Shown here: positions 3,313-61,787 of the stretch, one piece after another
How the letters are laid out: every line of letters starts with the position of its first letter
How positions within the stretch are numbered: the stretch's first letter is position 1
Source of the DNA: a virus
Length of the DNA: 64,000 bases
Reading direction: 5' to 3' (one strand)
Virus record (IMG/VR): IMGVR_UViG_3300020048_000085
Position numbers and translations under genes: made by a program
The notes under the pieces: generated by a model
What the model was told of the DNA's origin: nothing
The model's database searches: none
The model's input: only the letters and a program-made list of their open reading frames with translations

Positions 3313-3753
3313 TTATATATTGAATTTATTAACATCATAATAATATATAATATCATCATATGTCAAATTTTCAAACATAGCAACAACTTTATCATAATCA
3401 AACAATTTAATTTTTATTGTATCATATATCACGTATTCAACACCTCTTTCATGATGTTTATGCTCAATTTTTACTATTTTTTTAATATTATCTATTATAT
3501 AATCAATAATAAATCTATGTTTTTGTGAATCACCTCCTCGATAATTAGAAAATTCTACAATTATATCATCTTTTTGTTTTTTAAAATAAATTTCTGAATA
3601 TAAAAAACTACTATCTTTATTTTTCTCAAATCTAATACTTGTGCCTTTATATGCATAATAAACTTTATATCTTTGTCTTAAAAAATTAAACATAACTGTT
3701 ATTAAATCTACACAAAAAAAAGTACTCTCAAACAATTTAAACTTTTTTATCAT
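3313..3753 (-). CDS. Member of the N-terminal FKxFE paralog family (MIKKFKLFES... ...DVNKFNI)
   Basis: It has the shared N-terminal motif M-I-K-K-F-K-L-F-E and the shared C-terminal KFNI tail. Confidence 0.55.
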   Translation of the reverse strand: MIKKFKLFESTFFCVDLITVMFNFLRQRYKVYYAYKGTSIRFEKNKDSSFLYSEIYFKKQKDDIIVEFSNYRGGDSQKHRFIIDYIIDNIKKIVKIEHKHHERGVEYVIYDTIKIKLFDYDKVVAMFENLTYDDIIYYYDVNKFNI

Positions 3754-3762
3754 TATTAATTA

Positions 3763-16621: not shown

Positions 16622-16624
16622 AAG

Positions 16625-17583: not shown

Positions 17584-18005
17584 ATATTAAATTTTTTTGA
17601 ATTTGTAATATATTTTGGTGTTTTATTTATAGCACGTTTAAATACATAAAATACATATTTAGTTATTGGATCACCAATATTATCTATTCTTGCATTATCT
17701 AAAATATATTTTATTTTATCATATAATAATATATCTTTTTCAAATTCTACGATTATTAATTCAATAGCATATTTTTTTACTTCATTGCGTATTCTATCGT
17801 CTATTTTATTATTTCCTTTTTTCCATGTGTTTGAACTGTAATATAAATTATATAATATAGAAAATATATAACTAAATTCTTCTGGTACCTTAAATATATT
17901 TTGAATAAATGATGTATCTTTTTTATACATTCTATCATAATAATTTAAATAATAATCAACCATAGATTGATCATATTTTTCAAATATTTTAAATTGTGTT
18001 ATCAT
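17580..18005 (-). CDS. FKxFE family paralog (MITQFKIFEK ... SKKFNI)
   Basis: Family motifs and ATGA overlaps. Confidence 0.6.
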   Translation of the reverse strand: MITQFKIFEKYDQSMVDYYLNYYDRMYKKDTSFIQNIFKVPEEFSYIFSILYNLYYSSNTWKKGNNKIDDRIRNEVKKYAIELIIVEFEKDILLYDKIKYILDNARIDNIGDPITKYVFYVFKRAINKTPKYITNSKKFNI

Positions 18006-18436
18006 AAATTAAATTTTTTAGCGTTCTCAATTAAAATCAACTTGTTTATTATATCTTTTTTTCTAGGTGGAATATAACCATAAATTGTAAATGGTGAATT
18101 AACATCAACTGAGTGAATAATATGTTCATCATTTTTTAAAATTAAATCTAATGATACAAACTCTTTTACTCTTTTTTTAGCTGTTCCTGTATAACCAATA
18201 CCACATCGTTCAACTTTACTAATAATACCATTATGTTTATTTTCATAATCAACAAGTACCTTTTTAATATTATTAAAAGAATATTTACTATAAAATTTAA
18301 CATTAGTACCAGGAATCAATAAATCAGTTAGAAATTTTTTAATTTTTGTATAACTACCATTATAATATTCTAATAATGTATTTAACATAAATGTTATTTC
18401 TTCTTGTGTATCAAATGAATCAAATTTAGTAATCAT
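18002..18436 (-). CDS. FKxFE/KKFNL family paralog (MITKFDSFDT ... AKKFNL)
   Basis: Family motifs and ATGA overlap. Confidence 0.6.
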   Translation of the reverse strand: MITKFDSFDTQEEITFMLNTLLEYYNGSYTKIKKFLTDLLIPGTNVKFYSKYSFNNIKKVLVDYENKHNGIISKVERCGIGYTGTAKKRVKEFVSLDLILKNDEHIIHSVDVNSPFTIYGYIPPRKKDIINKLILIENAKKFNL

Positions 18437-18442
18437 ATAATT

Positions 18443-18826
18443 TTATTTTTTTCTTAAATATGAAAAAACAACATCAAAAAATATTAGTTTAATACAAAAT
18501 GCTATTATAACCCATAAGAATGAAAAATTTAATACTATTATAATAGAAGCAATAATCATTAATAATTCAGATAAAAACCAAAATAAATGCCACGCATCAG
18601 TAAAAATAACAAATATAGTAGTACTACCTAAAAATTTTTCACCACTATGTGGATCATTATTTTTATATTTATTTAATGAACCTAATCCTTGCTCCCAAAA
18701 ATTTGGATTTAAATGATATTTCAAATATAATTTAGATTTATAAAATAAATTAGGAGATGATGATAAATCAGTAATTGATTTTGCAACTCCAGATAGGAAC
18801 AATAGTATTATAATTAATATTATCAT
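18443..18826 (-). CDS. Predicted small integral membrane protein (at least 3 hydrophobic helices)
   Basis: MIILIIILLFLSGVAKS... followed by a long hydrophobic C-terminal stretch. It is embedded in the paralog array. Confidence 0.4.
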   Translation of the reverse strand: MIILIIILLFLSGVAKSITDLSSSPNLFYKSKLYLKYHLNPNFWEQGLGSLNKYKNNDPHSGEKFLGSTTIFVIFTDAWHLFWFLSELLMIIASIIIVLNFSFLWVIIAFCIKLIFFDVVFSYLRKK

Positions 18827-18828
18827 AT

Positions 18829-19248
18829 TTATAAATTGAATTTTTTTGTTTCTTTATTTATATTTATTTCATCTATGATATCTTTAATATCATCAGGAAT
18901 AATACCATAAATATTCATTGGAGAATTTGTGTCTACATCATGTTTATATCTTATTCCTTTTAATTTTATTGTTAAAAAAATATAGTTAAATTCTTTATTA
19001 AAACCATAACCAAATCCCCTCACAACACCTTTATGTTGTTTATTTGAGTGCATGAAATAATTTAATCCTTTAATATCTTCTGTGCATTTTTTACATTCGA
19101 ATTTAATAACATTATTTTTAATTTCAAGTAATTTAAATATAAAATCACTTATAGATTCATTATCACCATTAAAATAACCAATAATATCATTTATTGTTAA
19201 TGTTACTTTATTTCCTGTATTTTCAAATAATTTGAATTGAGTTATCAT
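18829..19248 (-). CDS. FKxFE/KKFNL family paralog (MITQFKLFEN ... TKKFNL)
   Basis: Family motifs. The element ttatatatac lies immediately upstream of its ATG on the minus strand. Confidence 0.6.
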   Translation of the reverse strand: MITQFKLFENTGNKVTLTINDIIGYFNGDNESISDFIFKLLEIKNNVIKFECKKCTEDIKGLNYFMHSNKQHKGVVRGFGYGFNKEFNYIFLTIKLKGIRYKHDVDTNSPMNIYGIIPDDIKDIIDEININKETKKFNL

Positions 19249-24557: not shown

Positions 24558-24815
24558 ATGGGATTTATTAGAACAATTAAGGGTGAAGATAATAAACCTT
24601 TTATTTCACTAGAAGATTTAATTTCTGAAATTGAATATACTAAGAATTTTAATAATGAATATAAAAAAGAATTTTCACAGAATATAAATTATATTGATAT
24701 ATTTTTATCAACATTATATAAAATGGAAGAAGATTATTATGGTGATTTTATATTTAGATTAAATAAAGATGATGAAAATGATGATATTGAAAAAAAGAAA
24801 AAAAAGAAAAAATAA
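24558..24815 (+). CDS. Hypothetical small protein with a poly-Lys C-terminus
   Basis: ORF. The C-terminal KKKKKKK is encoded by an A-rich homopolymeric tract. Confidence 0.35.
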   Translation: MGFIRTIKGEDNKPFISLEDLISEIEYTKNFNNEYKKEFSQNINYIDIFLSTLYKMEEDYYGDFIFRLNKDDENDDIEKKKKKKK

Positions 24816-24817
24816 TT

Positions 24818-25156
24818 ATGACTGGAACTACATTAAATTTATCATATATTCAATGTCCAAATTTACTAACTATACATACACCATCAGACAATTCTAAAGA
24901 TTTGTTACAAATAACCAATAATGGCGAAGTGTATTATAGATATAATGATGAGATGTTGAAAGTTAATTGTCCAGATGATGTCACAGAAGCATTAACTTAT
25001 ACTGTATTAAATTATAACAATTCTTCAATAGAAGATATCTTATTTAATAAATATTTGAATAAAATTTCAACTGGACAAATCACCAATGAACAAACTAGTA
25101 TGCTTGAAAATGTATTTAGAAAATTAAAAATTCAAAAATTAAATGATAATAGATAA
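24818..25156 (+). CDS. Hypothetical protein (112 aa)
   Basis: ORF only. Confidence 0.4.
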   Translation: MTGTTLNLSYIQCPNLLTIHTPSDNSKDLLQITNNGEVYYRYNDEMLKVNCPDDVTEALTYTVLNYNNSSIEDILFNKYLNKISTGQITNEQTSMLENVFRKLKIQKLNDNR

Positions 25157-25700
25157 TAATTTAATACAAAAATCTATTTATAAATGGGCTCCTATTATGA
25201 TTTCATTAGGACTAAAAAATAATAGATTAGCAGGTACACTTTCTTTATTTGCTGAATTATATTCATATAACACAATATATAACCATAATAATAAACTAAT
25301 TATTAATTTAAATGATAGAATTAATGCTACTTTATTACCAATAATGCTGAGAACATTAACATCTTTAAATTTAGAACTAGTCAATTTAATTATAGATAAT
25401 GATAATAAATATGAATTAAATACATATAGCATTAAATTAAAACATATTATTGATGATATTGATGATATTGATGATAGTTTTTGTGTTGATAAATTAATAA
25501 TAGATACTATAACAAATGAAATAAACGAAAAAATTAAAAAAGAAAAATCAGATAAAATGATAATTAGATATGATTTTATCAATTGTGATGTTTCAGAAAA
25601 TTATATAAATTTAACATTAAATTATCTATTGACTAGTATAAAAAAAGAAAGAAGTGATAAAATAAATAAAATAAATAAATTATTAATAACAAATAAATAA
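25143..25700 (+). CDS. Hypothetical protein (185 aa)
   Basis: ORF. It lies directly upstream of the M16 peptidase gene with a 1-nt gap. Confidence 0.4.
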   Translation: MIIDNNLIQKSIYKWAPIMISLGLKNNRLAGTLSLFAELYSYNTIYNHNNKLIINLNDRINATLLPIMLRTLTSLNLELVNLIIDNDNKYELNTYSIKLKHIIDDIDDIDDSFCVDKLIIDTITNEINEKIKKEKSDKMIIRYDFINCDVSENYINLTLNYLLTSIKKERSDKINKINKLLITNK

Positions 25701-26855
25701 ATGGTAATAAACGTAAAGAGTGAGACTGCAATGTCTGGATTTTATATTATATTTAAAGGATCAACTATGAATGAAAAACCTGGTTGGTATGGAATTAGTC
25801 ACCTATGTGAACATATTCTTTGTAAGGCTATATTTCATTTACAAGATACATATCAACAAAAAAATATAAAATGGAATGCATATACTTCGGTAGATACTGT
25901 AGTTTTTTATATGACAGGGATTGATAGACACATAAACAAATATAAAAATGATTTTTTAAATTTATTATTAGATTTTAAACCTACACAAAAACAATTGGAT
26001 AATGAAAAGAAAATTGTTTTAGAAGAGTATAAAATGAGTTTCAATTCACAAATTGAATCTCACTATTTTAATTTACAGAGAAAGATGTTAAGTTATTATA
26101 ATCCTATTGGACTCAGATCTGATATTGAAAATATAACATTACAAGATTGTAATGATTATTTAGATTTATATTTTAAGAATCCAACAAAAATAATAAATGT
26201 ATCAAAATTTAATGATTTTGAAACAGATATAAAATTCAAAGTTGAGATAGATGTTAAACCATTTGAATTTAAAATAAATGATAATTTGTATATTATAACA
26301 TCTGACGATAATACAGATGTACCTAAAGGTATGATACCATTAGAAATTATCACAGAATTTAAAAATAAAGTTAGTATAATTGATGTCTCAACTATGCTTA
26401 CAAAAGATTTTGCATATGCATCATTTGTGTGTGAGATGTTAAGTTCAGGTTTAAATTCTCCATTATATAAAGAGGTTAGAGAAAAATTAGGATTAGTTTA
26501 TTACATAAGTTGTTCATTAGATAAATTAAATGATAAATCTTGTTCAATAAGTATTATCACTAACACATCTAAAAATAATATTGAACGTGTACAACATGAG
26601 ATAAAGAATATATTACAAAACAAAGAAATATATTTAACTCAAGAAAGATTTGATATCATAAAAGATAAGCAACTCACAAAAATTGAAGAAAATGAGATTT
26701 TAAATAATAATATTTCTAAATATATGGAAAATCCTGAATGGATGATTGAAAATATTATAAACACTATAACATTAGATGATGTGTATAGAGTGGTTGATGA
26801 ATATCTAAATTGGGATAATATGTATAAATCTGTAGATATTAATGAATTTTCTTAA
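25701..26855 (+). CDS. M16-family (insulinase/pitrilysin/MPP-like) zinc metallopeptidase
   Basis: An inverted zinc-binding motif HxxEH in the typical context GISHLCEHILCK, close to the N-terminus. The size is consistent with one M16 active unit. Confidence 0.55.
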   Translation: MVINVKSETAMSGFYIIFKGSTMNEKPGWYGISHLCEHILCKAIFHLQDTYQQKNIKWNAYTSVDTVVFYMTGIDRHINKYKNDFLNLLLDFKPTQKQLDNEKKIVLEEYKMSFNSQIESHYFNLQRKMLSYYNPIGLRSDIENITLQDCNDYLDLYFKNPTKIINVSKFNDFETDIKFKVEIDVKPFEFKINDNLYIITSDDNTDVPKGMIPLEIITEFKNKVSIIDVSTMLTKDFAYASFVCEMLSSGLNSPLYKEVREKLGLVYYISCSLDKLNDKSCSISIITNTSKNNIERVQHEIKNILQNKEIYLTQERFDIIKDKQLTKIEENEILNNNISKYMENPEWMIENIINTITLDDVYRVVDEYLNWDNMYKSVDINEFS

Positions 26856-26967
26856 TTAATATATAAATATATTTTTTTAACTATATTATAAATCACTAAT
26901 TATCAATAAGTTATAATTATTATTCAAAATATATAATAAAATGTTTTTTTATTATGATTATTATTAG

Positions 26968-26975
26968 TAAATTTG
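26968..26975 (+). promoter_or_regulatory. Weak TAAATTTG (TAnnTTTG-type) candidate promoter upstream of clpS
   Basis: It matches TAnnTTTG about 50 nt upstream of the clpS ATG. There is no clear -33 TTTG. Confidence 0.2.
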
Positions 26976-27026
26976 CACTGTCAATTAATAATTAAAAATT
27001 ATAATAAAGTTAATATATAACAAATT

Positions 27027-27323
27027 ATGGAAATAAACACAAAAACCAAGTCTTTGGAAGAAATTTTATCTGAGAATGGAATTTCTACAAACACAGAAAA
27101 AGAAAGTAAATTGATATTATGGAATGATGATGTCAACTCTTTTGAATGGGTAATAATATGTTTAATAATGTATTTAAAGTTTACACCAGAAAGAGCAGAA
27201 ACAACAGCTTATAATGTTCATCTTAAAGGAAAAGATATTATTAAAACTGGCTCAAAAGAAGATTTAGAGCCATATAAAAAATTACTAGAAGAAAGAGGAT
27301 TAAGTTTAACAATAGAAACATAA
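27027..27323 (+). CDS. clpS: ClpS, the N-degron (N-end rule) adaptor for ClpA/ClpC
   Basis: LILWNDDVNSFEWVI...AYNVHLKGK aligns with the ClpS core, including the NDD substrate-pocket residues and the conserved His. It has the size and operon position of canonical clpS-clpA. Confidence 0.8.
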   Translation: MEINTKTKSLEEILSENGISTNTEKESKLILWNDDVNSFEWVIICLIMYLKFTPERAETTAYNVHLKGKDIIKTGSKEDLEPYKKLLEERGLSLTIET

Positions 27324-27324
27324 A

Positions 27325-27555
27325 ATGAAAAAAATAATAATAAATTATATTTTATATGTTTATCACAATTATATTCAAAATGATGAATTTGATAATATAT
27401 ATAAAGAGTGGGCTAAACCTTTTATGATGGTACTTAAATATATACACAATGTATACATGTGGATATTTTGTATTATATTTTTTCCAGTTATTTTAATCTT
27501 AATGATGATTGATAGCTATATGAAAAAAAATAGAAAAAAAATAAAAAAATTATGA
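27325..27555 (+). CDS. Small hydrophobic protein between clpS and the unfoldase gene
   Basis: 76 aa with a predicted TM helix (IFCIIFFPVILILMMI). It is tightly packed with ATGA-type overlaps on both sides. Confidence 0.35.
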   Translation: MKKIIINYILYVYHNYIQNDEFDNIYKEWAKPFMMVLKYIHNVYMWIFCIIFFPVILILMMIDSYMKKNRKKIKKL

Positions 27556-30095
27556 ATTATTCAAAAGATGTAGAATTTGCGATTAAAACAAGTAAGGATA
27601 TTGCTATTAAAATTGGCTCAAATACAATTAGACCTGAGCATATTTTTTTAGCTATGATTGAGGATGAATATTCTGACGCATGTCTTATTATGAAAGAGTT
27701 AAACTTAAATGTTGACGCAATCAAACAGACTATTTATCAGTGGTCTATGGTTGAACAATCAGGTAAAGGAATAAACAATCTTAGGAAAAATGCAGCAATT
27801 CCTCTTGATATGGAAACAGAGAAAATATTAAAAAGTTCTGTTGTTTTTGCCAAATCAATGGAATCAGATGACGTAGAGATTGATCATGTTTTTTATTCAA
27901 TTTTAGATAATGAAAACAATATAGTTAATTTATTATTAAATAAATCGCCTGGTATTTTAAATAGTTTAAAACGTAGATTGAAGAATGAAGATATTGATGA
28001 TTATACAAACAACTTAAATGAAGATAGTATGGAAGAAGGTATGGAAGAAGGAGAAGTAAAAACAGATTCAAAAAATAAATCAAAAACAAAATTACTTGAT
28101 CAATTTGGTACAAATTTAACAAACTTAGCAAAAGAAGGTAAGTTAGATCCAGTGGTTGGTCGTGTAAATGAGATTAAAAGAATCTCACAAATTTTATCCA
28201 GACGTAAGAAAAATAATCCTGTTTTGATTGGTGAGCCAGGTGTTGGTAAATCAGCTATTGCTGAAGGAATTGCTCAATTAATTGCAGATGGTAAAGTACC
28301 TGAAAATTTACAAAACAAGAGAATCATCACACTTGATATGGGTTCGTTAGTTGCGGGAACTAAATATAGAGGTGAGTTTGAGCAAAGAATGAAAGGTATT
28401 GTTAAAGAAATGGAAGAGAATAGTGATATTATTCTTTTCATTGATGAGATACATACTATTATTGGCGCTGGAGCATCACAAGGATCTCTAGATGCATCTA
28501 ATATGTTAAAACCAGCTTTGGGAAAAGGTACTTTTAGATGTATTGGTGCAACAACATTAGATGAATATCGTAAATATATTGAAAAGGACCCAGCATTAGA
28601 ACGTAGATTTCAAAAAGTTATAGTTGATTCTACTACAAAATCTGAAACATTAGAAATTCTTAAAAATATAAAAGCTCAATATGAGACTCATCATAAAGTT
28701 AAATATACTGATGACGCTTTAATCGCTTGTGTAGAATTATCAGATAAATACATATCAGACAAATTTTTACCTGATAAGGCAATTGATGCACTTGATGAAG
28801 CAGGTGCTATGGTTCATGTTAATAGAACAAGTGATATTCCAGATAAATTAGTAAATCTAAATAATAAAATCAAAGAATCTACTATTTTAAAATTAGATTG
28901 TGTAAAAAATCAAAAATTTGAATTGGCTGCTGAACACAGAGACAATGAGAAACAATGGAAATTAGAAGTTGATGAAATAAGAACAAATTGGAAGCAAGAA
29001 ATATCTAATACTATATCAACTGTAACTAAAGATGATGTGGCAGCAGTTATTTCACTTATGACAAAAATTCCAATTGATAGTGTATCTACAGATGAAAATG
29101 ATAAACTTATCGGTATGCCAGAAAAAGTTAAAAAACTTGTTATTGGTCAAGATGACGCAGTAGATAAAATTGTACAATCTGTTAAAAGATCAAGAATTGG
29201 ATTAAATAGCCATAATAAGCCAGTAGGTACATTTATTTTCTTAGGACCAACAGGAGTAGGTAAAACATACTTAGCAAAAATTATGGCAAAAGAATTATTT
29301 GGTTCCGAGGATTCATTAATTAGAATAGATATGAGTGAATTTATGGAGAAATTTTCTGTATCTCGTTTAGTTGGTGCACCTCCAGGATATGTTGGATATG
29401 AAGATGGTGGAAAATTAACAGAAGCAGTTAGACGCAAACCTTATTCAATTGTTCTTTTCGATGAAATGGAAAAAGCTCATTCAGATGTTCAAAATATTTT
29501 ACTTCAAGTATTAGATGATGGTTTTTTAACTGATAGTAATGGTCGCAAAGTTGATTTTAGAAATACTATTATTATTATGACATCAAATGCTGGTTCTAGA
29601 AAAGTAAAAGATTTTGGGAATGGTATTGGATTTGGTAGTATCTCTTCAAATAATCAAGAAAAGAGAAATGATGTTATAAAAAAAGAACTCGAAAAATTAT
29701 TTAGTCCAGAGTTTTTAAATAGAATTGATGAAATTGTAAATTTCAACTCTTTAAGTAAAGAAAATATCATTTCTATTATTGATGTAGAATGTAAATATTT
29801 GATTAATAATCTTAAAGAAAAAGGTTATGATGTCACAATATCAAACTCACTTAAAGATTACTTAGTTGAAAATGGATATGATGAAAATTATGGTGCAAGA
29901 CCACTCAAGAGAGCAATACAAAAACATATTGAAGATAGACTTATAGACGCTATCATAAGTAAAGAAATTGCTGTAGGTGATACAATATCATTATTATATG
30001 ATACTGAAAGTCAATCTGTTAAAATTTCAAAATTATCACCAAACTTTTTGGTTGATAATGTATTAAAATTAAATGAAAGTACTCCTGAAGTTTAA
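27552..30095 (+). CDS. clpC: ClpA/ClpC-type Hsp100 AAA+ unfoldase (Clp_N domain, two AAA modules, IGF ClpP-docking loop)
   Basis: Clp N-domain at the N-terminus. Walker A motifs GEPGVGKSAIAEG and LGPTGVGKTYLAK. A short UVR-like linker rather than a ClpB M-domain. SNAGSRKVKDFGNGIGFGS aligns with the ClpA IGL ClpP-binding loop, which is absent from ClpB. Confidence 0.85.
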   Translation: MNYSKDVEFAIKTSKDIAIKIGSNTIRPEHIFLAMIEDEYSDACLIMKELNLNVDAIKQTIYQWSMVEQSGKGINNLRKNAAIPLDMETEKILKSSVVFAKSMESDDVEIDHVFYSILDNENNIVNLLLNKSPGILNSLKRRLKNEDIDDYTNNLNEDSMEEGMEEGEVKTDSKNKSKTKLLDQFGTNLTNLAKEGKLDPVVGRVNEIKRISQILSRRKKNNPVLIGEPGVGKSAIAEGIAQLIADGKVPENLQNKRIITLDMGSLVAGTKYRGEFEQRMKGIVKEMEENSDIILFIDEIHTIIGAGASQGSLDASNMLKPALGKGTFRCIGATTLDEYRKYIEKDPALERRFQKVIVDSTTKSETLEILKNIKAQYETHHKVKYTDDALIACVELSDKYISDKFLPDKAIDALDEAGAMVHVNRTSDIPDKLVNLNNKIKESTILKLDCVKNQKFELAAEHRDNEKQWKLEVDEIRTNWKQEISNTISTVTKDDVAAVISLMTKIPIDSVSTDENDKLIGMPEKVKKLVIGQDDAVDKIVQSVKRSRIGLNSHNKPVGTFIFLGPTGVGKTYLAKIMAKELFGSEDSLIRIDMSEFMEKFSVSRLVGAPPGYVGYEDGGKLTEAVRRKPYSIVLFDEMEKAHSDVQNILLQVLDDGFLTDSNGRKVDFRNTIIIMTSNAGSRKVKDFGNGIGFGSISSNNQEKRNDVIKKELEKLFSPEFLNRIDEIVNFNSLSKENIISIIDVECKYLINNLKEKGYDVTISNSLKDYLVENGYDENYGARPLKRAIQKHIEDRLIDAIISKEIAVGDTISLLYDTESQSVKISKLSPNFLVDNVLKLNESTPEV

Positions 30096-30110: not shown

Positions 30111-30148
30111 AAAAAAGCTCAAAATTAAAATTTTGAGCTTTTTTTTAT
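30111..30148. terminator. Bidirectional intrinsic terminator after clpC
   Basis: Stem gctcaaaatt / aattttgagc with a T-run of 9. It lies between convergent genes. Confidence 0.6.
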
Positions 30149-30684
30149 TGTTTATTTTCCAATAATTTAATCAATCCAAATATAGAATAATTAATCATAT
30201 CGAAATAATTAGCATCTATACCTTCTGATATTAATGCTCCTTTATTATCTTCCATTTGTTTTGTTCTATATATCTTCATTAAAATTAAATCAGTATATGA
30301 CTCCATACGCATTAGTCTCCACACTTCATTATAATCATGATTTTTGTTCATCATTAAATTTTTAGCCTGATTAATATATTTATCATATAATATTAAACAT
30401 TTATCATAAGGTAAATCATCAACATCTGAAAAATTAAGTTCTAATTGAATTAATCCTATTATACCATAATTAACAATACCAATTAATTCAGAATCAATTC
30501 CTTCATTTACTTTCTTCTCTATTTTTGTTTCTATACTTCTAATTCTATTTGCTTTAATAAATATTTGATCTGTTACAGATGTTGGTCTTAATATTCTCCA
30601 TGATGCACCGTAATCTTTCATCTTATTTGAAAAAATATTTTTACAAATAGATATTATTTCATCATACTCTTCATTTGTTTCCAT
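30145..30684 (-). CDS. Protein with two tandem repeats of about 85 aa (K..DYG.SWR motif), possibly DUF1599-like
   Basis: Internal duplication: KNIFSNKMKDYGASWRILRPTSVTDQIFIKANRIRSIE versus KNLMMNKNHDYNEVWRLMRMESYTDLILMKIYRTKQME. Confidence 0.35.
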   Translation of the reverse strand: METNEEYDEIISICKNIFSNKMKDYGASWRILRPTSVTDQIFIKANRIRSIETKIEKKVNEGIDSELIGIVNYGIIGLIQLELNFSDVDDLPYDKCLILYDKYINQAKNLMMNKNHDYNEVWRLMRMESYTDLILMKIYRTKQMEDNKGALISEGIDANYFDMINYSIFGLIKLLENKQ

Positions 30685-37477: not shown

Positions 37478-38638
37478 ATGAACAAAGAATTAATTGAAGG
37501 AGTAAATATTGGAAATTTACCTGATCCATTTCCATACTTAAACAACAATAAAATTAGAAAAATCAAAAGTTCTGGTGATCTTAATGAAGAATACAGGGCA
37601 ATGTACGAAAAAATGGAATTATCTTTATCGACAACTAAAGAAGTTAGAGTAAATGAGGTAGTTACAGGTACAATAAAATCAATAAACCAAAAAGAAATTT
37701 TAATTGATTTTGGATTTAAAGATTTTATATATGTTGAAAAACCAAAATTAAATACAGTAATTACAGAATTAGTAACAGGTGAGATTATTGATGTATTAAT
37801 CACTAGTGTATCAGAAAAACCATATTTAATAAAGGGTTCTATAACTGAACTTATCAAGCAGAATGTTCATAATAAAATGAAATCTTATTATGACGGTAAT
37901 TTAACACTTATTGCAGAAGTTAAATCAATTATTCCAGCAGGATATAATATGAATATTATTATGGATAATGTTAAGATAGAAGCATTTATGCCAAATACAC
38001 TAGCAGATGTAAACAAATTAACAGACTCTGAATCTATCTTAGGTTCAACATTTGAAGTTATGTTAGAAACATTACAACAAGAAAAAGGAGTATATGTTGT
38101 ATCAAGAAGAAAGTATTTACAATCATTAATACCAGAAGAAATAACTAAATTAAAACATGATATTGTTTATCAAGGTTATATTACAGGCACAACACCATTT
38201 GGAATATTTGTTCAATTTAAAGCAACAGAAGATGGTCCTAATTGCTTAACTGGTATGGTTCATAAAGCTAATATTGCAGAAAATTGGCAAAGTAAATGGG
38301 ATAGTATACTTCCTGGTATGACAATCGAATTTTATGTTAAAGAAGTAATAAAAGGAAATAAAATAATCTTAACACAAATATTAAAAGAATCCTTATGGGA
38401 TAGTATTAAAGTTGGCAAAATATTAACTGGTAAAATAAGAGTAATTAAAAATTTTGGTGCACTTATAGCATTAGATGATGAAACTACTGGTTTAATTCAA
38501 ACGTCATATATTAATAGATATGATAAAAAATTAAATGTTGGTGATGAAGTTAAAGTTAAAGTAATATCTTTAATAAAAGATGATAGAAAAATTTATCTAA
38601 ATTTCGCTGATGCAAAATACAAAAGAGATGATGTATAA
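37478..38638 (+). CDS. Ribosomal protein S1-like protein with four S1 (OB-fold) domains
   Basis: Repeated S1 signatures, for example YQGYITGTTPFGIFVQFKATEDGPNCLTGMVHKANI and LTGKIRVIKNFGALIALDDETTGLIQTSYI...VGDEVKVKVISLIKDDRKIYL. Confidence 0.6.
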   Translation: MNKELIEGVNIGNLPDPFPYLNNNKIRKIKSSGDLNEEYRAMYEKMELSLSTTKEVRVNEVVTGTIKSINQKEILIDFGFKDFIYVEKPKLNTVITELVTGEIIDVLITSVSEKPYLIKGSITELIKQNVHNKMKSYYDGNLTLIAEVKSIIPAGYNMNIIMDNVKIEAFMPNTLADVNKLTDSESILGSTFEVMLETLQQEKGVYVVSRRKYLQSLIPEEITKLKHDIVYQGYITGTTPFGIFVQFKATEDGPNCLTGMVHKANIAENWQSKWDSILPGMTIEFYVKEVIKGNKIILTQILKESLWDSIKVGKILTGKIRVIKNFGALIALDDETTGLIQTSYINRYDKKLNVGDEVKVKVISLIKDDRKIYLNFADAKYKRDDV

Positions 38639-38764: not shown

Positions 38765-39283
38765 CTAATCTAAATCTTTAATAAATTGTGTTCCAATTAA
38801 ATCTAATATAACTTCTCTGTCGAATACATTAACTGCAACTTTATATTTTTGTTTTTGTTTATTAATATCAATATTCTTTATAACACCTTTGAATGTATTA
38901 AATGGACCATCAATTATTCTTACTTTTTCTTTAATATAAAAAACATCTATATCACTAACAACATCATTAGATGGTGTTTTATCTAATAATCTATTAACTT
39001 CAGATTCTCTTAATGGTTTAGTCAATAATGATTGAACACCATCTATATATTTAACAAATCCAGCAACCTCATTTACCAAATCACATTCAACAAAAATATA
39101 ACCTGGAATAATAATTTTTTCTACATTTATTTTTTTACCATTTCTTAATTGTTGAGCTTTATTTGAAGGTACTAATATATTTATTATTAAATTATTTAGT
39201 TCTTTTCTTTTTAATTCAGCTTCAATTAATTCTTTTACTTTTTTTTCTTTACCATTTGCAACTTTTATAACATACCATTTCAT
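38765..39283 (-). CDS. nusG: NusG-like transcription antitermination/elongation factor (NGN + KOW domains); the start is at the internal Met (MKWYVIKV), not the 39337 start of the longest ORF
   Basis: NGN domain WYVIKVANGKEKKVKELIE... and KOW motif VRIIDGPFNTFKGVIKNIDI...KVAVNVFDREV. The 18-codon upstream extension is rejected because it runs into a 16-bp perfect terminator hairpin. Confidence 0.7.
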   Translation of the reverse strand: MKWYVIKVANGKEKKVKELIEAELKRKELNNLIINILVPSNKAQQLRNGKKINVEKIIIPGYIFVECDLVNEVAGFVKYIDGVQSLLTKPLRESEVNRLLDKTPSNDVVSDIDVFYIKEKVRIIDGPFNTFKGVIKNIDINKQKQKYKVAVNVFDREVILDLIGTQFIKDLD

Positions 39284-40024: not shown

Positions 40025-40300
40025 ATGAAAAATTCTTTCCTAAAAATGAGAATAGATGATGATGAATATCAAAAATTTCAAGAATCATGTGAAAATAAAG
40101 GCAAAACTATGAGCGAAGTTATGAGAGCCTTTATTAACTCATATAATAACGGTAAAAATATAATTCTATTAGATATTGATAATGACACATTTGATCAAAG
40201 TCTAAACTTATGTAAAGAGAAAAAAATTAAACTTAATGATGTTGTGAAATATTTATTGCACAAAGCAATTAAAAATAAAGACAAATTAAATTTTAAATAA
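40025..40300 (+). CDS. Small RHH/CopG-like DNA-binding protein candidate
   Basis: LKMRIDDDEYQKFQESCENKGKTMSEVMRAFINSY is a strand-helix-helix pattern, with a second similar segment downstream. Confidence 0.35.
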   Translation: MKNSFLKMRIDDDEYQKFQESCENKGKTMSEVMRAFINSYNNGKNIILLDIDNDTFDQSLNLCKEKKIKLNDVVKYLLHKAIKNKDKLNFK

Positions 40301-41714: not shown

Positions 41715-42281
41715 ATGATAGAATTTTTTAACTCTCTAGATATGTTTAGTAAAACATTATTTTTTATGGCTTTTGGAACAGGTGTATTATTTATTATCCA
41801 AAATTTAATTGTGTTTTTAGGAATGGATCATGATAGTGATATTGATACTGATTCAGATATTGATTCAGAACACAACTCTGGTAAATCATTTGGTTGGTTT
41901 TCATTTAAAAACGTTGTTAATTTTATTCTAATTTTTTCATTAGTAGGATTAATAACAGTAGGTTCTGGAATATCAAAACCAGTATCATTATTAATAGCAT
42001 CAATAGCAGGTATTATATTTGTTTATGTGATGATATTATTATTCAATCTAATGAAAAAACTCTCTCAAGATAATACACCAACATTAACTGATTTAGTTGG
42101 AGAAACTGGTGTAGTATATTTAAAAATACCTGCAGTAGGAAATGGAAAAATAAAAATAATGCATGGCGGAGCAATTCAAATATTAGATGCGTGTTCAGAA
42201 GGTATAGTAATCACAAGAGATTCAAATGTTAAGGTGTCTAAAATTGTAGGACATACTATAATAGTAGAAGAAATAAAATAA
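41715..42281 (+). CDS. NfeD-like membrane protein (short form, YuaF/YqiJ-like) partnered with flotillin
   Basis: N-terminal transmembrane helices plus a C-terminal beta-rich OB-like segment (GVVYLKIPAVGNGKIKIMHGGAIQILDA). It sits immediately upstream of an SPFH protein, as in bacterial nfeD-floT operons. Confidence 0.55.
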   Translation: MIEFFNSLDMFSKTLFFMAFGTGVLFIIQNLIVFLGMDHDSDIDTDSDIDSEHNSGKSFGWFSFKNVVNFILIFSLVGLITVGSGISKPVSLLIASIAGIIFVYVMILLFNLMKKLSQDNTPTLTDLVGETGVVYLKIPAVGNGKIKIMHGGAIQILDACSEGIVITRDSNVKVSKIVGHTIIVEEIK

Positions 42282-42328
42282 TCAATAAAAATAATTTATA
42301 AATAAAAACAATTTAATTTAAAAAAAAC

Positions 42329-43831
42329 ATGAGTAGTACATTAACGTTAATTTTAATCGTAGTAGTTGCGATTTCAGTATTTTCAATTATTGTTGCCTTA
42401 GTAAAAAGGTACAAACGTTGCCCATCAGATAAACTTTTAGTTATTTATGGTAAAACAGGCAAAACTGATGGTAAAGCATCAGCAGCAAAAGTAATTCATG
42501 GTGGTGGTGCATTTGTTTGGCCAGTCATTCAGGATTATACTTTCTTAGATTTGAAACCAATTTCAATTGATATTAATTTGAAAGGTGCATTATCTAAACA
42601 AAACATACGTATTGATGTTCCATCAGTATTTACAGTTGCAATATCAGGTGGAGATGGAATACGTGAGAATGCTGCTGAGAAATTACTTGGACTTCAAAAA
42701 CAAGAAATAGCACAATTAGCACAAGATATTATTCTTGGTCAAATGCGTTTAGTTATCGCAATGATGAACATTGAAGAAATAAATGCTGACCGTGACAAAT
42801 TTCTTGAAAATATTCAAAAAAATCTTGAAGATGAGCTTCAAAAAATTGGTCTAAGACTTATTAATGTAAATATCACAGATATTAGTGATGAATCAAACTA
42901 CATTAAATCATTAGGACAGAATGCAGCATCAGGAGCTATTAATGAAGCTGCAATTCAAGTTGCACAGAAGAATAAAGATGGTGCTATTGGTGTTGCAACA
43001 GCAGATAGAGAAAAACGTGTGAGTGTTGCTGCTGCGCAAGCAGAAGCACAAATTGGTGAAGCTGATGCAAGTCAAAAAATGAGAGCAGAAACTGCTGCAT
43101 TAAATGCAAAGGCTATTGCTGGTGAAAATAGTGCATTTGTTGAAATAGCAAAAACTAATGCTAGTAGACAAATTGCAGAAGCTGATGCAAAGAAAGACTC
43201 AGTTACTGCTGAAAATGTAAAAGCAGCAGAAGCAAAACAAGCATCATATGATGCTGAAAAATTAGCAGAAACAAAACGTGCTGAAAGAGATAAAGCAACT
43301 CAATATGCAAATATTGTTGTACCTGCTGAAATAGCAAAAGAAAAACTTATTGTTGAAGCTGCTGCAAATGCAGAATCAACTAGAGTAATTGCAAAAGGTG
43401 ATGCTGATGCAATGTTTGCTAAAATGGAAGCAGAAGCAAGAGGTATAAATGAAATACTAACAAAGCAAGCTGAAGGTTTTGCAAAGTTAGTTCAAGCTGC
43501 TGGTGGAGATGCTGCAAAAGCTGTTCAATTGATGATTGCTGATAAATTACCAGAACTTACAAGAATTCAAGTTGATGCTATCAAAAATATCAAATTTGAT
43601 AAGATTACAGTTTGGGATAATGGTGGAAATGGCTCAGGAAATTCTACTGCAAATTTTGCAAAAAATTTATTTTCAATGATTCCACCACTTACTGACATTT
43701 TCAAACAAGTTGGTGCTGAATTACCAGCATTTATGCAAGGTGCAGGAGAACAAAAAACAAATGAACTTGAAGCAGAAAACTCTGTCACTAAAGTAATAAA
43801 AGACGAAACAACTGATAATAGTAAATCATAA
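42329..43831 (+). CDS. Flotillin-like SPFH/band-7 protein (FloT/YqiK type) with Ala/Glu-rich coiled-coil repeats
   Basis: N-terminal TM anchor and an SPFH core (VIHGGGAFVWPVIQDYTFLDLKP...). There is a long EA-repeat region (AAQAEAQIGEADASQKMRAETAALNAKA...). GC is visibly higher than in the surrounding sequence. Confidence 0.75.
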   Translation: MSSTLTLILIVVVAISVFSIIVALVKRYKRCPSDKLLVIYGKTGKTDGKASAAKVIHGGGAFVWPVIQDYTFLDLKPISIDINLKGALSKQNIRIDVPSVFTVAISGGDGIRENAAEKLLGLQKQEIAQLAQDIILGQMRLVIAMMNIEEINADRDKFLENIQKNLEDELQKIGLRLINVNITDISDESNYIKSLGQNAASGAINEAAIQVAQKNKDGAIGVATADREKRVSVAAAQAEAQIGEADASQKMRAETAALNAKAIAGENSAFVEIAKTNASRQIAEADAKKDSVTAENVKAAEAKQASYDAEKLAETKRAERDKATQYANIVVPAEIAKEKLIVEAAANAESTRVIAKGDADAMFAKMEAEARGINEILTKQAEGFAKLVQAAGGDAAKAVQLMIADKLPELTRIQVDAIKNIKFDKITVWDNGGNGSGNSTANFAKNLFSMIPPLTDIFKQVGAELPAFMQGAGEQKTNELEAENSVTKVIKDETTDNSKS

Positions 43832-53768: not shown

Positions 53769-54078
53769 TATTATGATTATAGATAAAACATATGGAATTT
53801 GGGATTTAATAAATCCTCCAATAATTGATGATATTGCATATTATTTATGTATGAAAGATTATATTTTTTATTGTAATCATTGTATTTATTTAAATGATTT
53901 TAATGTTATAACAAAATATGATCCACCATGTCAAAGTTGGGTTAAAGTTGTAAGATGTTATAAATGGTGTGATAACATTGTTAATTATTATGAAAAAGCA
54001 ACACACATAGTAGAGAAAAAAATTAGAAAAGAAAAATTAACAAAATTATATAATGAAGAAAAAAGTGGTTGTTTTTAG
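53758..54078 (+). CDS. Small protein paralogous to 37155..37397 (IIDKTYGIWDLINP...DIAYYL ... RKEKLTKLYN)
   Basis: Shared N-terminal and tail motifs. Confidence 0.45.
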   Translation: MSFNIMIIDKTYGIWDLINPPIIDDIAYYLCMKDYIFYCNHCIYLNDFNVITKYDPPCQSWVKVVRCYKWCDNIVNYYEKATHIVEKKIRKEKLTKLYNEEKSGCF

Positions 54079-54718
54079 TGGAGCCGGATTAGATGCTGAA
54101 AGTGGAGTTTCAACTTTCAGAACAGATAACGGATTGTGGGAAAATTATGATGTAAAAGATGTTGCAAATATTGATGGATGGAGAAATAATAGACAATTAG
54201 TATTAAACTTTTATAATGAAAGACATAAACAATTAGATGCAGTAGAACCGAATTCTGCACATTATTATCTTGCTGAATTAGAAAAAAAACATGATGTTTT
54301 TCACATAACTCAAAATATTACAGATTTACTTGAACGAGCTGGTTGTACAAATGTGTTACACCTCCATGGAGAATTAACAAAAATGAGAGGATTTAATAGT
54401 GGAACAATTTATGATTGGGATAAAGACTTTGATATTCAAACTCATAGTGTAGATGAAAATGGTGATACACTTCGTCCACATGTAGTTTGGTTTGGAGAAG
54501 ATGTTCCAAACATGGTAAAAGCTGAGAAATTAGTTAGAGATGCTGATGTGTTAATTATTATTGGCACGTCTTTATTAGTTTATCCTGCAGCAAACTTAGT
54601 ATATAAAGTTAAATTTAGAACTCCTATATATTATATTGATCCATCAAATTCAGATATTGATGATGTTATACACATCAAAGATGTTGCAACAGATGGTGTT
54701 AAAAAATTAAATTTATAA
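54053..54718 (+). CDS. Sir2-family NAD-dependent deacylase / ADP-ribosyltransferase (sirtuin), apparently lacking the zinc-binding cysteines
   Basis: GAGLDAESGVSTFR, TQNITDLLERAG and LHLHGEL are present in the canonical order. No CxxC pairs are visible in the small-domain region. Confidence 0.75.
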   Translation: MKKKVVVFSGAGLDAESGVSTFRTDNGLWENYDVKDVANIDGWRNNRQLVLNFYNERHKQLDAVEPNSAHYYLAELEKKHDVFHITQNITDLLERAGCTNVLHLHGELTKMRGFNSGTIYDWDKDFDIQTHSVDENGDTLRPHVVWFGEDVPNMVKAEKLVRDADVLIIIGTSLLVYPAANLVYKVKFRTPIYYIDPSNSDIDDVIHIKDVATDGVKKLNL

Positions 54719-56436: not shown

Positions 56437-56673
56437 ATGAAGATTTTAAGAAAAAATGACATTTTTAAAAAAGTACCTGATAGTAGTATTGTTGATGCTG
56501 TCGCAATTAAAGGTTTTATTGAACAAGGTTGGAAATATTGCTCAAGAAAAGAATATAAAGAATTTTTCGGTGGTGTAAAAGATTTACAACAAAAAGATTT
56601 AAAATCTGAAAATATTAAACCAGAAGATAATATTCAACCAACAAAAAAGAAAAAACACGGTAAAAATAAATGA
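56437..56673 (+). CDS. Hypothetical small basic protein (78 aa)
   Basis: ORF with an ATGA overlap with def. Confidence 0.4.
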   Translation: MKILRKNDIFKKVPDSSIVDAVAIKGFIEQGWKYCSRKEYKEFFGGVKDLQQKDLKSENIKPEDNIQPTKKKKHGKNK

Positions 56674-57107
56674 TTTTAGATATAATTAAGTATACTGATA
56701 CATATTATGGAAAATTGAGAAAACCTAATGTTGATGTTAAAAAAGAAAATCCTTTTTTAAATCAATTAATTAAAGATATGTTTGAAACTCTTAATTATTA
56801 TAAATTTGAATTTGGATTATCTGCACCACAAGTTGGACACAATTTAAATTTATTTGTTATCAATACTCCTGATTTAAAAGAAGTTTTTATTAATCCAGAA
56901 ATACATCTTGAAGGCTTAATTATACAAAATAAAGAAGAATGCCTGAGTTTTCCTGGTATGCAATTTGCAGCAAATAGAAGAAGTAATATCGAAATTAAAT
57001 ATTATGATAGTGATTGGAATCTTAGAATATGTAAATATAAAGATTTAAATTCAATCGCAATACAACATGAATATGATCACTTAAAAGGTAGATTAATAAT
57101 TGACTAA
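56670..57107 (+). CDS. def: Peptide deformylase
   Basis: All three PDF motifs are present: GLSAPQVG (GxGxAAxQ-like), EECLSFPG (EGCLS) and IQHEYDHLKG (QHExDH). Confidence 0.85.
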   Translation: MILDIIKYTDTYYGKLRKPNVDVKKENPFLNQLIKDMFETLNYYKFEFGLSAPQVGHNLNLFVINTPDLKEVFINPEIHLEGLIIQNKEECLSFPGMQFAANRRSNIEIKYYDSDWNLRICKYKDLNSIAIQHEYDHLKGRLIID

Positions 57108-59915: not shown

Positions 59916-61787
59916 ATGAGTGTGTCAGAAATATATAAATTACTAGAAAACGATTTGTTTTCAGAAGCTTCTATTGAAATTAAGAAACTAAATCAGAAAT
60001 ATCGTGATGGTGATCCTCAAATTAGTGATATAGATTATGATAAATTGATTGAATTGTTTCAAAGATTAGATCCAGATAATGAATTTTTTAAATCATCTGT
60101 TGTTGATGATGTTAATCCTGATAGAAAAGAAGCTTTGAAATTTCCAATGTTCTCTTTGGATAAATATCATTCTATTGAAGATATTCATAAGTGGTTAAAT
60201 AATAAAGGAATATCACTAGATGTAGAATTAGTTTGTACATCAAAGTATGATGGTATATCTATTCTTAAAGATGAATTTAATCAACTTGCATGGTCAAGAG
60301 GTGATGGTTTAGTAGGTGAGACTATGCATGAACATTGTAAAAAATTAAAATCTGATAATAAGAAAATCGATTTATTTACTATTGGAGAGATGCTTTTTTC
60401 AAAACCTTTTTTTAATAGTAAAATATTTTATAGAGATAATGGTGAACCATTTAAAAATGCTCGTAATATGATTGCAGGACTTAAAAATTCTGATACAGTA
60501 TCAGAATATTTAGTTGATGCTAAACATATTCGTTATGGATATGCTAATGAAGATTTTTCATTGAATAAATCTGAACAATTAGATTTTATTAATGAAAATT
60601 TCTCTACTGTACCATACAAAATAATTAAAGCAAAAGAATTGAATATTGATATGTTAAATGAGCTTTTTGTTAAGTGGGGCGAAGAGTATGATATTGATGG
60701 ATTAGTCTTTGATATTGATGATAAAAATATCAGAAAAAATCTAGGTCGTGAAAGGAACAACAATCCAGCATATGCCAGAGCGTTTAAAAATCCTCAATGG
60801 TCAGAAGCAAAAGAAACTATAATTCTTGATATAGAATGGAATATCAGTAAGAACGGATTACTTAAGCCAGTTGGAATATTACAACCTATTGATTTAGAAG
60901 GTGTTATAGTTTCAAGGGTGACATTGAACAATGCGAAGTTCGTCAAGGACTTCTGCATTGGAAAGAACACAATTTTGAAAATTTTGAGATCTGGTTTTGT
61001 CATACCAAAAGTGCAGAGTATTATAAAATCTACTGGATATGTTGAACCTGTTGTTGGAAACTCAAAAGTTTTCTGGAACGAAAATGGTGTAGAATTGATG
61101 GTTGAAGGTACGGAAGAACAGGAAATCAAAAAACTCATTTCTTTTTTTGAAATTCTTGGTGCAGAAAACGTGTCAGAAGGTATTATTAATCAATTGTATA
61201 ATTCTGGTTATAAAACTATTAAACAAATTTTAGATTTGACAACTGATGATTTAGAAAAACTTGAACGCTTTGGTGAACGGAAATCACAAATCGTTTTTCA
61301 ATCCATACATAATGCGGTTACAGACTTAAAATTATCTAAACTTATGCATGCAACAAATATTTTTAAAAATCTAGGATCGAAGAAACTTGATTTGTTGATG
61401 CATTTTGAAGGTAAACCAACATTTGAAGAAATACTTAAAGTCGATGGGTTTTCTGATATCTCAGCAAAAGCATATCTTGATGGATATGATGAATTTTATA
61501 ATTGGTTAAGTGATATGACAAAAATAACTATAGAAACTAAAAAAGAAAAAAACATTATGGAAAAAAATGATTTAGAAGGAACAGTATGGGTGTTTACTGG
61601 AATTCGATTAAAAACTGCTGAAGAATTGTTAATTGATAGAGGTGCAAAAATTACAACCTCTGTAAGTAAGAATACCACTCACTTGGTGTGTAAAGATCCA
61701 AATAGCGGATCAAGTAAATTGCTGAAAGCTATTGAGTTAGGTGTAGAAATTATGAGTGTAGAAGACTTTGAAGATTTTTTAAGTTGA
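59916..61787 (+). CDS. ligA: NAD-dependent DNA ligase (LigA type) with a C-terminal BRCT domain; no tetracysteine zinc-finger module is visible
   Basis: N-terminal Ia-like helical domain. Adenylation motif I TSKYDGISI (KxDG). OB and HhH regions. A C-terminal BRCT (WVFTGIRLKTAEELLIDRGAKITTSVSKNTTHLV). No Cys4 cluster lies between the OB and HhH regions. Confidence 0.88.
   Translation: MSVSEIYKLLENDLFSEASIEIKKLNQKYRDGDPQISDIDYDKLIELFQRLDPDNEFFKSSVVDDVNPDRKEALKFPMFSLDKYHSIEDIHKWLNNKGISLDVELVCTSKYDGISILKDEFNQLAWSRGDGLVGETMHEHCKKLKSDNKKIDLFTIGEMLFSKPFFNSKIFYRDNGEPFKNARNMIAGLKNSDTVSEYLVDAKHIRYGYANEDFSLNKSEQLDFINENFSTVPYKIIKAKELNIDMLNELFVKWGEEYDIDGLVFDIDDKNIRKNLGRERNNNPAYARAFKNPQWSEAKETIILDIEWNISKNGLLKPVGILQPIDLEGVIVSRVTLNNAKFVKDFCIGKNTILKILRSGFVIPKVQSIIKSTGYVEPVVGNSKVFWNENGVELMVEGTEEQEIKKLISFFEILGAENVSEGIINQLYNSGYKTIKQILDLTTDDLEKLERFGERKSQIVFQSIHNAVTDLKLSKLMHATNIFKNLGSKKLDLLMHFEGKPTFEEILKVDGFSDISAKAYLDGYDEFYNWLSDMTKITIETKKEKNIMEKNDLEGTVWVFTGIRLKTAEELLIDRGAKITTSVSKNTTHLVCKDPNSGSSKLLKAIELGVEIMSVEDFEDFLS

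Follow-up and report, generated by a model that had tools for sequence, protein, structure and literature searches.

The gene at positions 25701 to 26855 of a 64,000 nucleotide stretch of viral DNA (IMG/VR virus record IMGVR_UViG_3300020048_000085), referred to here as the window and numbered throughout as a whole, is predicted to encode a zinc metallopeptidase of the M16 (insulinase) family. A preliminary description of the window had placed an M16-type open reading frame (ORF) with an HxxEH motif at this position, and the coordinates, the ATG start and the motif were all found to be as claimed. The ORF lies on the + strand, its start abuts the stop of the preceding ORF (25700), and its translation of 384 amino acids (aa) includes YGISHLCEHILCK, with the motif present as HLCEH at aa 34-38. 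The guanine plus cytosine (GC) content of the window ranges from 20 to 32% when taken in 2-kb steps and is ~22% in most of them.

Family, fold and enzyme type

The predicted protein matched Pfam Peptidase_M16 in its N-terminal part (31.5 bits; gathering cut-off 22.3) and Peptidase_M16_C in its C-terminal part (40.5 bits; gathering cut-off 23). As both matches are above the Pfam cut-offs, the HxxEH motif is not fortuitous, and the C-terminal inactive half-domain, which had been flagged as a point to look for, is present. A glutamate ligand was also expected about 70 residues downstream of the motif. E109 lies 71 residues past H38 and, in an alignment made with a profile of 29 family sequences, pairs with E126 of BH2405, the zinc site of which is numbered H46-FLE-H50...E126 (PMC12731061). 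The same profile matched BH2405 (PDB 3hdi) with E=3.4e-22 and the Helicobacter pylori enzyme 5euf with E=1.4e-20. In the alignment to BH2405, GISHLMEHL is opposite GISHFLEHM and the second Glu of LEEY is opposite the second Glu of FEEI. Further on, VREKLGLVY is opposite IREKRGLCY with R260 and Y267 seven residues apart as in BH2405, a spacing that R824 and Y831 of IDE also have. This R/Y pair completes the active site in M16 enzymes (PMC12731061).

The family alignment was used to build an AlphaFold2 model, which had a predicted local distance difference test (pLDDT) score of 93.7 and a predicted template modelling score (pTM) of 0.89. The first strand of the model comprises residues 2-6, the helix that bears E102 to E109 comprises residues 96-114, and the chain contains two homologous alpha/beta-roll domains, which is half of a clam-shell. 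The top Foldseek matches were 3hdi, 5euf, the Thermus TTHA1264/1265 subunits and a Sphingomonas heterodimer (E ~1e-19 to 1e-16; template modelling (TM) scores 0.72-0.78). The protein is thus a single two-domain chain close to the family median of 373 aa, and not of the four-domain 100-kDa type. On the evidence of the profiles, the aligned residues and the model, the gene is one for a genuine insulinase-type (M16B, clan ME) zinc peptidase. Three other candidate assignments were set aside. A match of aa 281-359 to phrog_8693, annotated as 'pilot protein for DNA ejection' (E=0.0019), is weak and partial and is contradicted by the full-length M16 fold, and matches to NCBIfam YfmF_fam (21 bits; cut-off 285) and Pfam PqqF-like_C_4 (16 bits; cut-off 27.5) are sub-threshold and reflect general M16_C similarity only.

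The conservation of the catalytic residues was examined in an alignment of 333 distinct members, comprising 150 cluster representatives from an exhaustive search, word-index matches and all fetched loci, and extending down to ~27% identity. All six key residues are retained in 326 of the 333, and the seven exceptions are six N-terminally truncated fragments and one protein with R260I. Taken singly, E109 and Y267 were found in 333/333 members, R260 in 332/333 and E102 in 328/333, and the HxxEH motif is kept by every full-length member. H34, E37, H38, E102, E109, Y110, R260 and Y267 are invariant in alignments down to 36% identity. As read from these alignments, the pattern is one of purifying selection on catalysis, and not that of a core-protein-like scaffold. 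As the set of catalytic and clamp residues is under strong purifying selection, the enzyme is probably active.

The preliminary description had also held that enzymes of this kind characteristically clip N-terminal presequences. However, this is a trait of the eukaryotic mitochondrial processing peptidase (MPP) subclass, in which the enzyme is an alpha/beta heterodimer without the R/Y pair and with a glycine-rich loop on the partner subunit (PMC12731061). The MPP beta subunit, which is also of type M16B, shares the fold and the HxxEH...E zinc site with the phage protein, and at the sequence level the match is confined to the N-terminal domain. However, MPP is an obligate heterodimer, whereas no second M16 gene was found in the 64-kb window when all ORFs were searched using phmmer, and the phage protein has the R/Y pair, which distinguishes the other M16 enzymes from MPP and the bc1 core proteins (PMC12731061). 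The region ahead of the pair (MLSSGLNSPLY) is also like that of BH2405 and is not a glycine-rich loop. As the R/Y pair is invariant and there is no partner gene in the window, the phage protein appears to resemble the bacterial type represented by BH2405 and H. pylori 5euf and not an MPP-type clipper. Prokaryotic M16B enzymes have been proposed to be 'peptidasomes' that enclose peptides and then cut them (PMC12731061). As the window has a single M16 gene, and most loci likewise have one, the phage enzyme is likely, by analogy, to be a homodimer.

BH2405 (also BHP) of Bacillus (Halalkalibacterium) halodurans is a YmxG-type homodimeric M16B peptidase. The phage protein shares 17-18% identity with it, is ~30 residues shorter (384 versus 413 aa), is phage-encoded, and differs in having the family-specific invariant residues C41, which follows the motif, and W58-N-A-Y-T62. 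The sub-clade to which the window belongs additionally has an insertion of ~18 residues in the inter-domain region. Identity with the H. pylori M16B protease (PqqE/HP1012 group) is ~19-20%. This enzyme is reported to be secreted and to act in virulence by cleaving JAM-A (PMC8115454), whereas the phage protein is without a signal sequence.

Distribution of the family

M16 peptidases had been described as uncommon in phages, and the searches agreed. Using tblastn, only five of 50,697 phage records were found to match, all of them from uncultured huge phages (LR745206 and LR756501-4; 634-735 kb; 36-44% identity), and there is no M16 family in PHROGs. Relatives were found in greater numbers elsewhere, with 624 in a large protein database, several of them on contigs of 531, 623 and 657 kb, and 75 loci in IMG/VR, many on contigs of 100-508 kb. 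An index-free search returned 1,734 cluster representatives at E<1e-3, of which 135 had E<1e-30, and among the matches listed nearly all were of 360-390 aa. An orthologue with 47% identity is encoded by the marine megaphage Mar_Mega_1 (OU342829). The family is a compact one (~370 aa) that is restricted to huge uncultured-phage contigs from marine and freshwater sources and is not found in cultured phages. Within this megaphage lineage the gene is common and well conserved.

BFVD was found to include only 14 viral structures with an M16 fold, and the Mar_Mega_1 orthologue was by far the closest (E=1.4e-46; TM 0.92-0.95). The other matches included giant-virus L233- or IDE-like proteins and one poxvirus G1 protein. 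The giant-virus proteins (the L233-type 'putative zinc protease' of Megavirus/Mimivirus and the IDE-like protein of 900 aa in Klosneuvirinae) and poxvirus G1 (M44) belong to clan ME, and their fold similarity to the phage protein is detectable. However, they scored much lower (TM 0.3-0.68; E=7.5e-15 or weaker), have other domain architectures and come from viruses of eukaryotes.

Named members of the family are proteins of metagenome-assembled genomes (MAGs) labelled Bacteroidota or Pacearchaeota. A pattern-based, and thus not exhaustive, scan of GTDB species-representative genomes found a 43% match on a 425-kb 'Pacearchaeota' contig and a 31% match on a 106-kb contig of an 'Omnitrophota' MAG, and the remaining matches were ordinary cellular M16 proteins of 26% identity or less. 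The 'Pacearchaeota' contig with the 43% match is very probably a mis-binned phage. Contig JBBACR010000001.1 of 'Candidatus Pacearchaeota archaeon' (locus L084) and IMGVR_UViG_3300035208_004923 (L020) are both exactly 425,361 bp in length. In public databases, contigs of huge phages thus appear among the cellular MAGs, with labels such as 'Candidatus Pacearchaeota archaeon', 'Bacteroidota bacterium' and 'Omnitrophota' (also P0121 and P0167).

In the supplement to the Mar_Mega_1 study the orthologue, SLAVMIC_00543 (UniProt A0A8D9CCE3), is annotated 'putative zinc protease', and the orthologues in LR745206 and LR756501-4, which belong to the same family, are unannotated. A peptidase is listed among the auxiliary metabolic genes common to Mar_Mega_1 and the five LR genomes, where it is not stated which peptidase is meant (PMC9723777). 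Two further papers (PMC9123017 and PMC7162821) do not mention the M16 gene, viral members are absent from the text of a 2025 review of the M16 family (PMC12731061), and a literature search on M16 or insulinase genes in mega-, jumbo or huge phages found none. The gene has therefore already been annotated automatically in one relative, and no further analysis of it was found in the literature.

A 243-kb contig (IMGVR_UViG_3300025858_000010) carries two M16 paralogues (L047 and L065) that are 39% identical and ~60 kb apart, and both keep the full catalytic and R/Y set. These could form a heterodimer or two separate homodimers. LR756501 also has two places that match the M16 query.

Gene neighbourhood, Clp genes and tagged proteins

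The features of the gene and of its surroundings are listed in Table 1. The genes reported to lie directly downstream of the M16 gene, clpS and a clpC-type gene, are indeed there. The NDD...H motif of the N-degron pocket is intact in ClpS when aligned to E. coli ClpS. The clpS gene, the small ORF and clpC are tightly packed, with junctions at 27323/27325 and 27555/27552, and no ClpP was found in the window using phmmer with an E. coli ClpP query. In the SbcCD fusion, an SbcD/Mre11-like phosphoesterase (aa 1-189) is followed by an SbcC/Rad50-like ATPase with a long coiled coil. A scan of 24.4-27.7 kb found 51 promoter-like sites (41.7+/-7.8 in shuffled sequences) and no + strand terminator, and at 22% GC neither result is informative. 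PADLOC gave no match for the M16 protein or for the small neighbouring ORFs. The most conserved of the cell-like genes in the window fall in stretches of higher GC, at 28-30, 42-44 and 60-62 kb.

Table 1. Coordinates of the M16 gene, its sequence features and other features of the window
Feature	Coordinates	Strand	Basis or remark
Tagged ORF region	3313-5809	-	
Tagged ORF region	13701-15502	+	
Tagged ORF region	16301-19248	-	
SbcD-SbcC (Mre11/Rad50-like) fusion, 1249 aa	20793..24542	+	Pfam Metallophos + AAA_23; phrog_35725
Small upstream ORF	24558..24815		Conserved within sub-clade
Predicted M16B zinc metallopeptidase gene, 384 aa, two alpha/beta-roll domains	25701..26855	+	
N-terminal catalytic domain, aa 8-115	25722..26045	+	Pfam Peptidase_M16
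HLCEH inverted-zincin motif (H34, H38 zinc ligands; E37 general base)	25800..25814	+	
E102...E109 segment in helix 96-114 (E109 distal zinc ligand; E102 conserved upstream Glu)	26004..26027	+	
C-terminal non-catalytic domain, aa 234-322	26400..26666	+	Pfam Peptidase_M16_C
R260...Y267 R/Y pair (VREKLGLVY)	26478..26501	+	Substrate-clamping motif of degrading-type M16 enzymes
AT-rich spacer, 171 bp, M16 gene to clpS	26856..27026	.	No other sizeable non-coding gap in 24.5-30.1 kb block
ClpS N-degron adaptor	27027..27323	+	Pfam ClpS E=2.7e-15
Small hydrophobic ORF, 76 aa	27325..27555	+	42-45% identical homologues at same position in L001 and L002
ClpA/ClpC-type double-AAA+ unfoldase	27552..30095	+	Clp_N domain; IGF ClpP-docking loop aa 692-694
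Double DUF1599 protein	30145..30684		
S1-domain protein	37478..38638		
NusG	38765..39283		
Tagged ORF region	39367-39837	-	
RelB-like antitoxin domain	40025..40300		
NfeD/SPFH (Band 7) pair	41715..43831		
Tagged ORF region	50653-51780	-	
SIR2-family protein	54053..54718		
Peptide deformylase	56670..57107		
NAD-dependent DNA ligase with BRCT	59916..61787		

The position of the gene upstream of clpS-clpC had been taken to suggest that the peptidase is coupled to the N-degron machinery. Gene content within 10 kb of the M16 gene was therefore compared by clustering the ORFs of 84 loci, with distant loci compared pairwise. Clp genes were found within this distance in only six loci, all of them in the sub-clade of the window, in which the M16 proteins are 58-70% identical. 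None of the ~70 other loci (M16 27-47% identical) has ClpS within 10 kb, and only one of them, L077 (M16 27% identical), has a ClpC-like AAA+ match within that distance. The order SbcCD fusion ... M16 ... ClpS - small ORF - ClpC is kept in the sub-clade, and it is only there (L001, L002 and L009-L011) that the SbcCD fusion is a conserved upstream neighbour. However, the distance from the M16 gene to clpS varies, from 171 bp in the window to 0.6 kb in L010, 2.6 kb in L002, 2.8 kb in L011, 4.5 kb in L001 and 5.3 kb in L009, and the interval in the relatives holds up to nine ORFs, including an isochorismatase-family (PncA-like) gene and a nicotinate phosphoribosyltransferase (pncB-type) gene, all of which are missing from the window. 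Two ORFs upstream of the M16 gene (24818..25700) are private to the window and absent from L001 and L002. The interval from the SbcCD fusion to clpS is a hot-spot for gene gain and loss (24818-25700 and 26856-27026 in the window, 11168-15532 in L001 and 11171-13660 in L002).

In the LR genomes, distances of 50-280 kb separate the M16 gene from those for ClpS and ClpC. ClpS, M16 and ClpC are at 180, 311 and 423 kb in LR745206, at 205, 338 and 441 kb in LR756502, and at 200, 252 and 535 kb in LR756504. The distance between ClpS and ClpC alone exceeds 200 kb in these megaphages. The context of the Mar_Mega_1 orthologue is again wholly different, as M16 is gene 543, 211 genes from ClpS (gene 332) and far from ClpA/ClpP (genes 427/428). 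It adjoins a lysin gene, and a neck gene of the T4 gp13 type lies ~8 kb from it. The ClpA/C ATPase of Mar_Mega_1 is encoded beside a phage ClpP. Across the 84 loci, ORF clustering found no clade-wide neighbour family other than M16 itself, only synteny blocks restricted to particular lineages. As the adjacency is seen only in the one sub-clade, the spacing varies there and the genes are 50-280 kb apart elsewhere, the Clp adjacency is inherited local synteny in a region of gene gain and loss, and not a selected linkage or an operon. Thus, the preliminary description was correct as to the M16 family, the two half-domains and the rarity of such genes in phages, but MPP-like clipping and a coupling to Clp deduced from position were not upheld.

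A short N-terminal sequence of the type MKxIKxFE, here M-[KI]-x-[IFL]-K-x-F-[EN] and referred to as the tag, begins ~14 ORFs of the window. Examples of sequences with the tag are MKHIRLFEELESQY... and MITQFKIFEN... Starts matching the broader pattern M-x(2,3)-[FILV]-[KR]-x-F-[EDN] were found in 13 of 92 first-ATG ORFs of the window versus 1 of 200 internal ATGs. The tag is also present in L004-L008 and in many IMG/VR loci, and heads otherwise unrelated proteins such as an ankyrin-repeat protein (16625-17239). The tag is modular, as one paralogue of the 'VGDYV' domain family is without it. In loci where the M16 protein is 36-70% identical, 56/1793 and 6/137 first-ATG ORFs are tagged versus 8/4753 and 0/492 internal ATGs. 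However, in contigs of higher GC content with an M16 protein of <36% identity the tag was found in only 1 of 458 ORFs, indicating that the M16 family extends beyond the tag-bearing phages. A single-sequence AlphaFold prediction for the tagged ankyrin protein had a pLDDT of 47, too low to judge whether the tag is a free extension.

A second sequence, [KN]KFN[LI] immediately before the stop codon, was found at the C-terminus of 12 ORFs, 11 of them in the tandem arrays at 13701-15502 (+) and 16301-19248 (-) and one outside the arrays (3313..3753, -). The DNA at the array junctions is conserved as AAAAAATTTAATTT-ATG-A, where the TGA stop overlaps the ATG that follows, and in their DNA the N-terminal K-x-F-N/E and the C-terminal KKFNL resemble each other. 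Thus, the tag may in part be a cassette boundary at the nucleotide level that serves in translational coupling or recombination, instead of or besides a protein tag. The first seven residues of the tag resemble the capsid-targeting leader of T4, MKTYQEFIAE.

Possible roles of the enzyme

The most probable reading, to which a probability of roughly 0.55 is given, is that the gene encodes a catalytically competent M16B endopeptidase of the BH2405/YmxG type, homodimeric, cytoplasmic and peptide-clearing, that is conserved in the lineage of Mar_Mega_1/LR7565xx-type megaphages. Two 45-kDa chains would form the clam-shell, in which H34, H38 and E109 of each N-terminal domain would hold zinc, E37 would activate water, and the active site would be completed by R260 and Y267 in the C-terminal domain of the other chain, with two sites per dimer. 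Only peptides or unfolded termini small enough for the chamber would be cut. As the fold begins at residue 2, leaving no signal peptide, the enzyme is predicted to act in the cytoplasm. Its contribution would be the clearance or degradation of oligopeptides in the infected cell, within a set of phage proteolysis genes at scattered positions that may comprise ClpS, ClpC, ClpP (in Mar_Mega_1), M42 and M20 peptidases and peptide deformylase, and in which M16 would not be an operon partner of ClpS-ClpC. The Mar_Mega_1 genome encodes, at dispersed positions, ClpS, the ClpA/C ATPase, ClpP, an M42 aminopeptidase, an M20-type peptidase and a separate T4 gp21-like prohead protease. Of the roles considered, peptide clearance or turnover is the most likely by analogy.

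Several points weigh against this reading. The physiological role is proposed by analogy, every known member of the family comes from an uncultured genome, and no conserved gene neighbour that hints at function was found. Conservation throughout the lineage could equally fit a single specific, essential substrate. In addition, the presence of two M16 copies in one IMG/VR contig and in LR756501, with the full catalytic set in both copies, makes a second subunit encoded outside the window possible.

The enzyme might instead be a host-takeover protease that reprogrammes the cell through the selective degradation of peptides, small proteins or metabolic enzymes of the host, although this is considered unlikely. 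Bacteroidetes are the predicted hosts of the largest of the related megaphages (PMC7162821), and a possible analogue is MdpA, a heterodimeric M16 peptidase of Bacteroides that is reported to control the abundance of glycolytic enzymes and the regulator Cur (PMC13081976). The inclusion of a peptidase among the shared auxiliary metabolic genes by the Mar_Mega_1 authors (PMC9723777) would also fit. However, apart from the two MAG-labelled contigs (43% and 31%), the nearest cellular homologues in the pattern-based scan are no more than 26% identical, and in the absence of a close cellular homologue the gene is not a recent capture or mimic of a host gene. Furthermore, no target can be deduced from the gene context, and the gene is conserved like a core gene and not like a patchy accessory gene.

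A protease of virion morphogenesis, cutting structural or packaged proteins during head assembly in the manner of poxvirus G1 (M44, clan ME), is rather improbable. Retention of the gene across the lineage, the existence of clan ME proteases in poxviruses and giant viruses, and the location of the Mar_Mega_1 gene beside a lysin gene and near the neck gene are consistent with such a role. However, Mar_Mega_1 already has its gp21-like prohead protease, the gene in the window is among genes for DNA metabolism and proteostasis and not structural ones, structural genes are never conserved neighbours, and the chamber of M16 enzymes excludes folded, assembled substrates (PMC12731061).

That M16 is coupled to ClpS-ClpC after all, clipping N-terminal leaders such as MKxIKxFE and thereby maturing proteins or exposing Phe/Leu N-degrons, appears very unlikely. 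The 171 bp separation in the window, the retained N-degron pocket of ClpS and the ClpP-docking IGF loop of ClpC would suit this idea, as would the tag family, which is real (13/92 versus 1/200), contains conserved Phe/Leu and co-occurs across the clade with M16 proteins of at least 36% identity (56/1793 versus 8/4753). However, the adjacency is confined to one sub-clade, with 0.2-5.3 kb and unrelated genes between, and is replaced by separations of 50-280 kb in LR745206, LR756502 and LR756504 and of hundreds of genes in Mar_Mega_1. The tag is essentially missing (1/458) where M16 is <36% identical, and the enzyme is of the R/Y type and not the MPP type. In addition, the boundary of the tag is conserved at the DNA level together with the C-terminal KKFNL-stop and may be a nucleotide-level junction element, and the gp21-like prohead protease of Mar_Mega_1 is the natural candidate for the removal of T4-style leaders.

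A dedicated processing peptidase for the MKxIKxFE cassette proteins, in what would be a phage 'presequence' system for maturation, relocation or N-degron timing, has only a slim chance of being correct. If it were true, dozens of small proteins would be matured or moved to another site once their leader had been cut off or, alternatively, the exposed Phe/Leu N-terminus would be a degradation timer for the phage ClpS-ClpC-ClpP. If the tag is a protein signal, a gp21-like protease would be a more natural processor than M16. None of the results links the tag to the M16 enzyme. Lastly, a leader peptidase for a ribosomally made peptide (RiPP) of the AlbEF/PqqF kind can be all but dismissed, the points in its favour being a length near that of AlbF/AlbE (366/381 aa; PMC12731061), the sub-threshold PqqF-like_C_4 match and the small upstream ORF conserved within the sub-clade.

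Cultured phages have almost no M16 peptidases, and here one is found throughout the largest known phages (0.4-0.74 Mb). Under the favoured reading of a peptide-clearing M16B enzyme, the finding suggests that some of the protein turnover of the cell is carried out by the phages themselves, with an N-degron adaptor, an unfoldase, ClpP, an oligopeptidase and aminopeptidases, which bears on amino-acid supply and on the control of proteostasis by a phage of near-cellular genome size.

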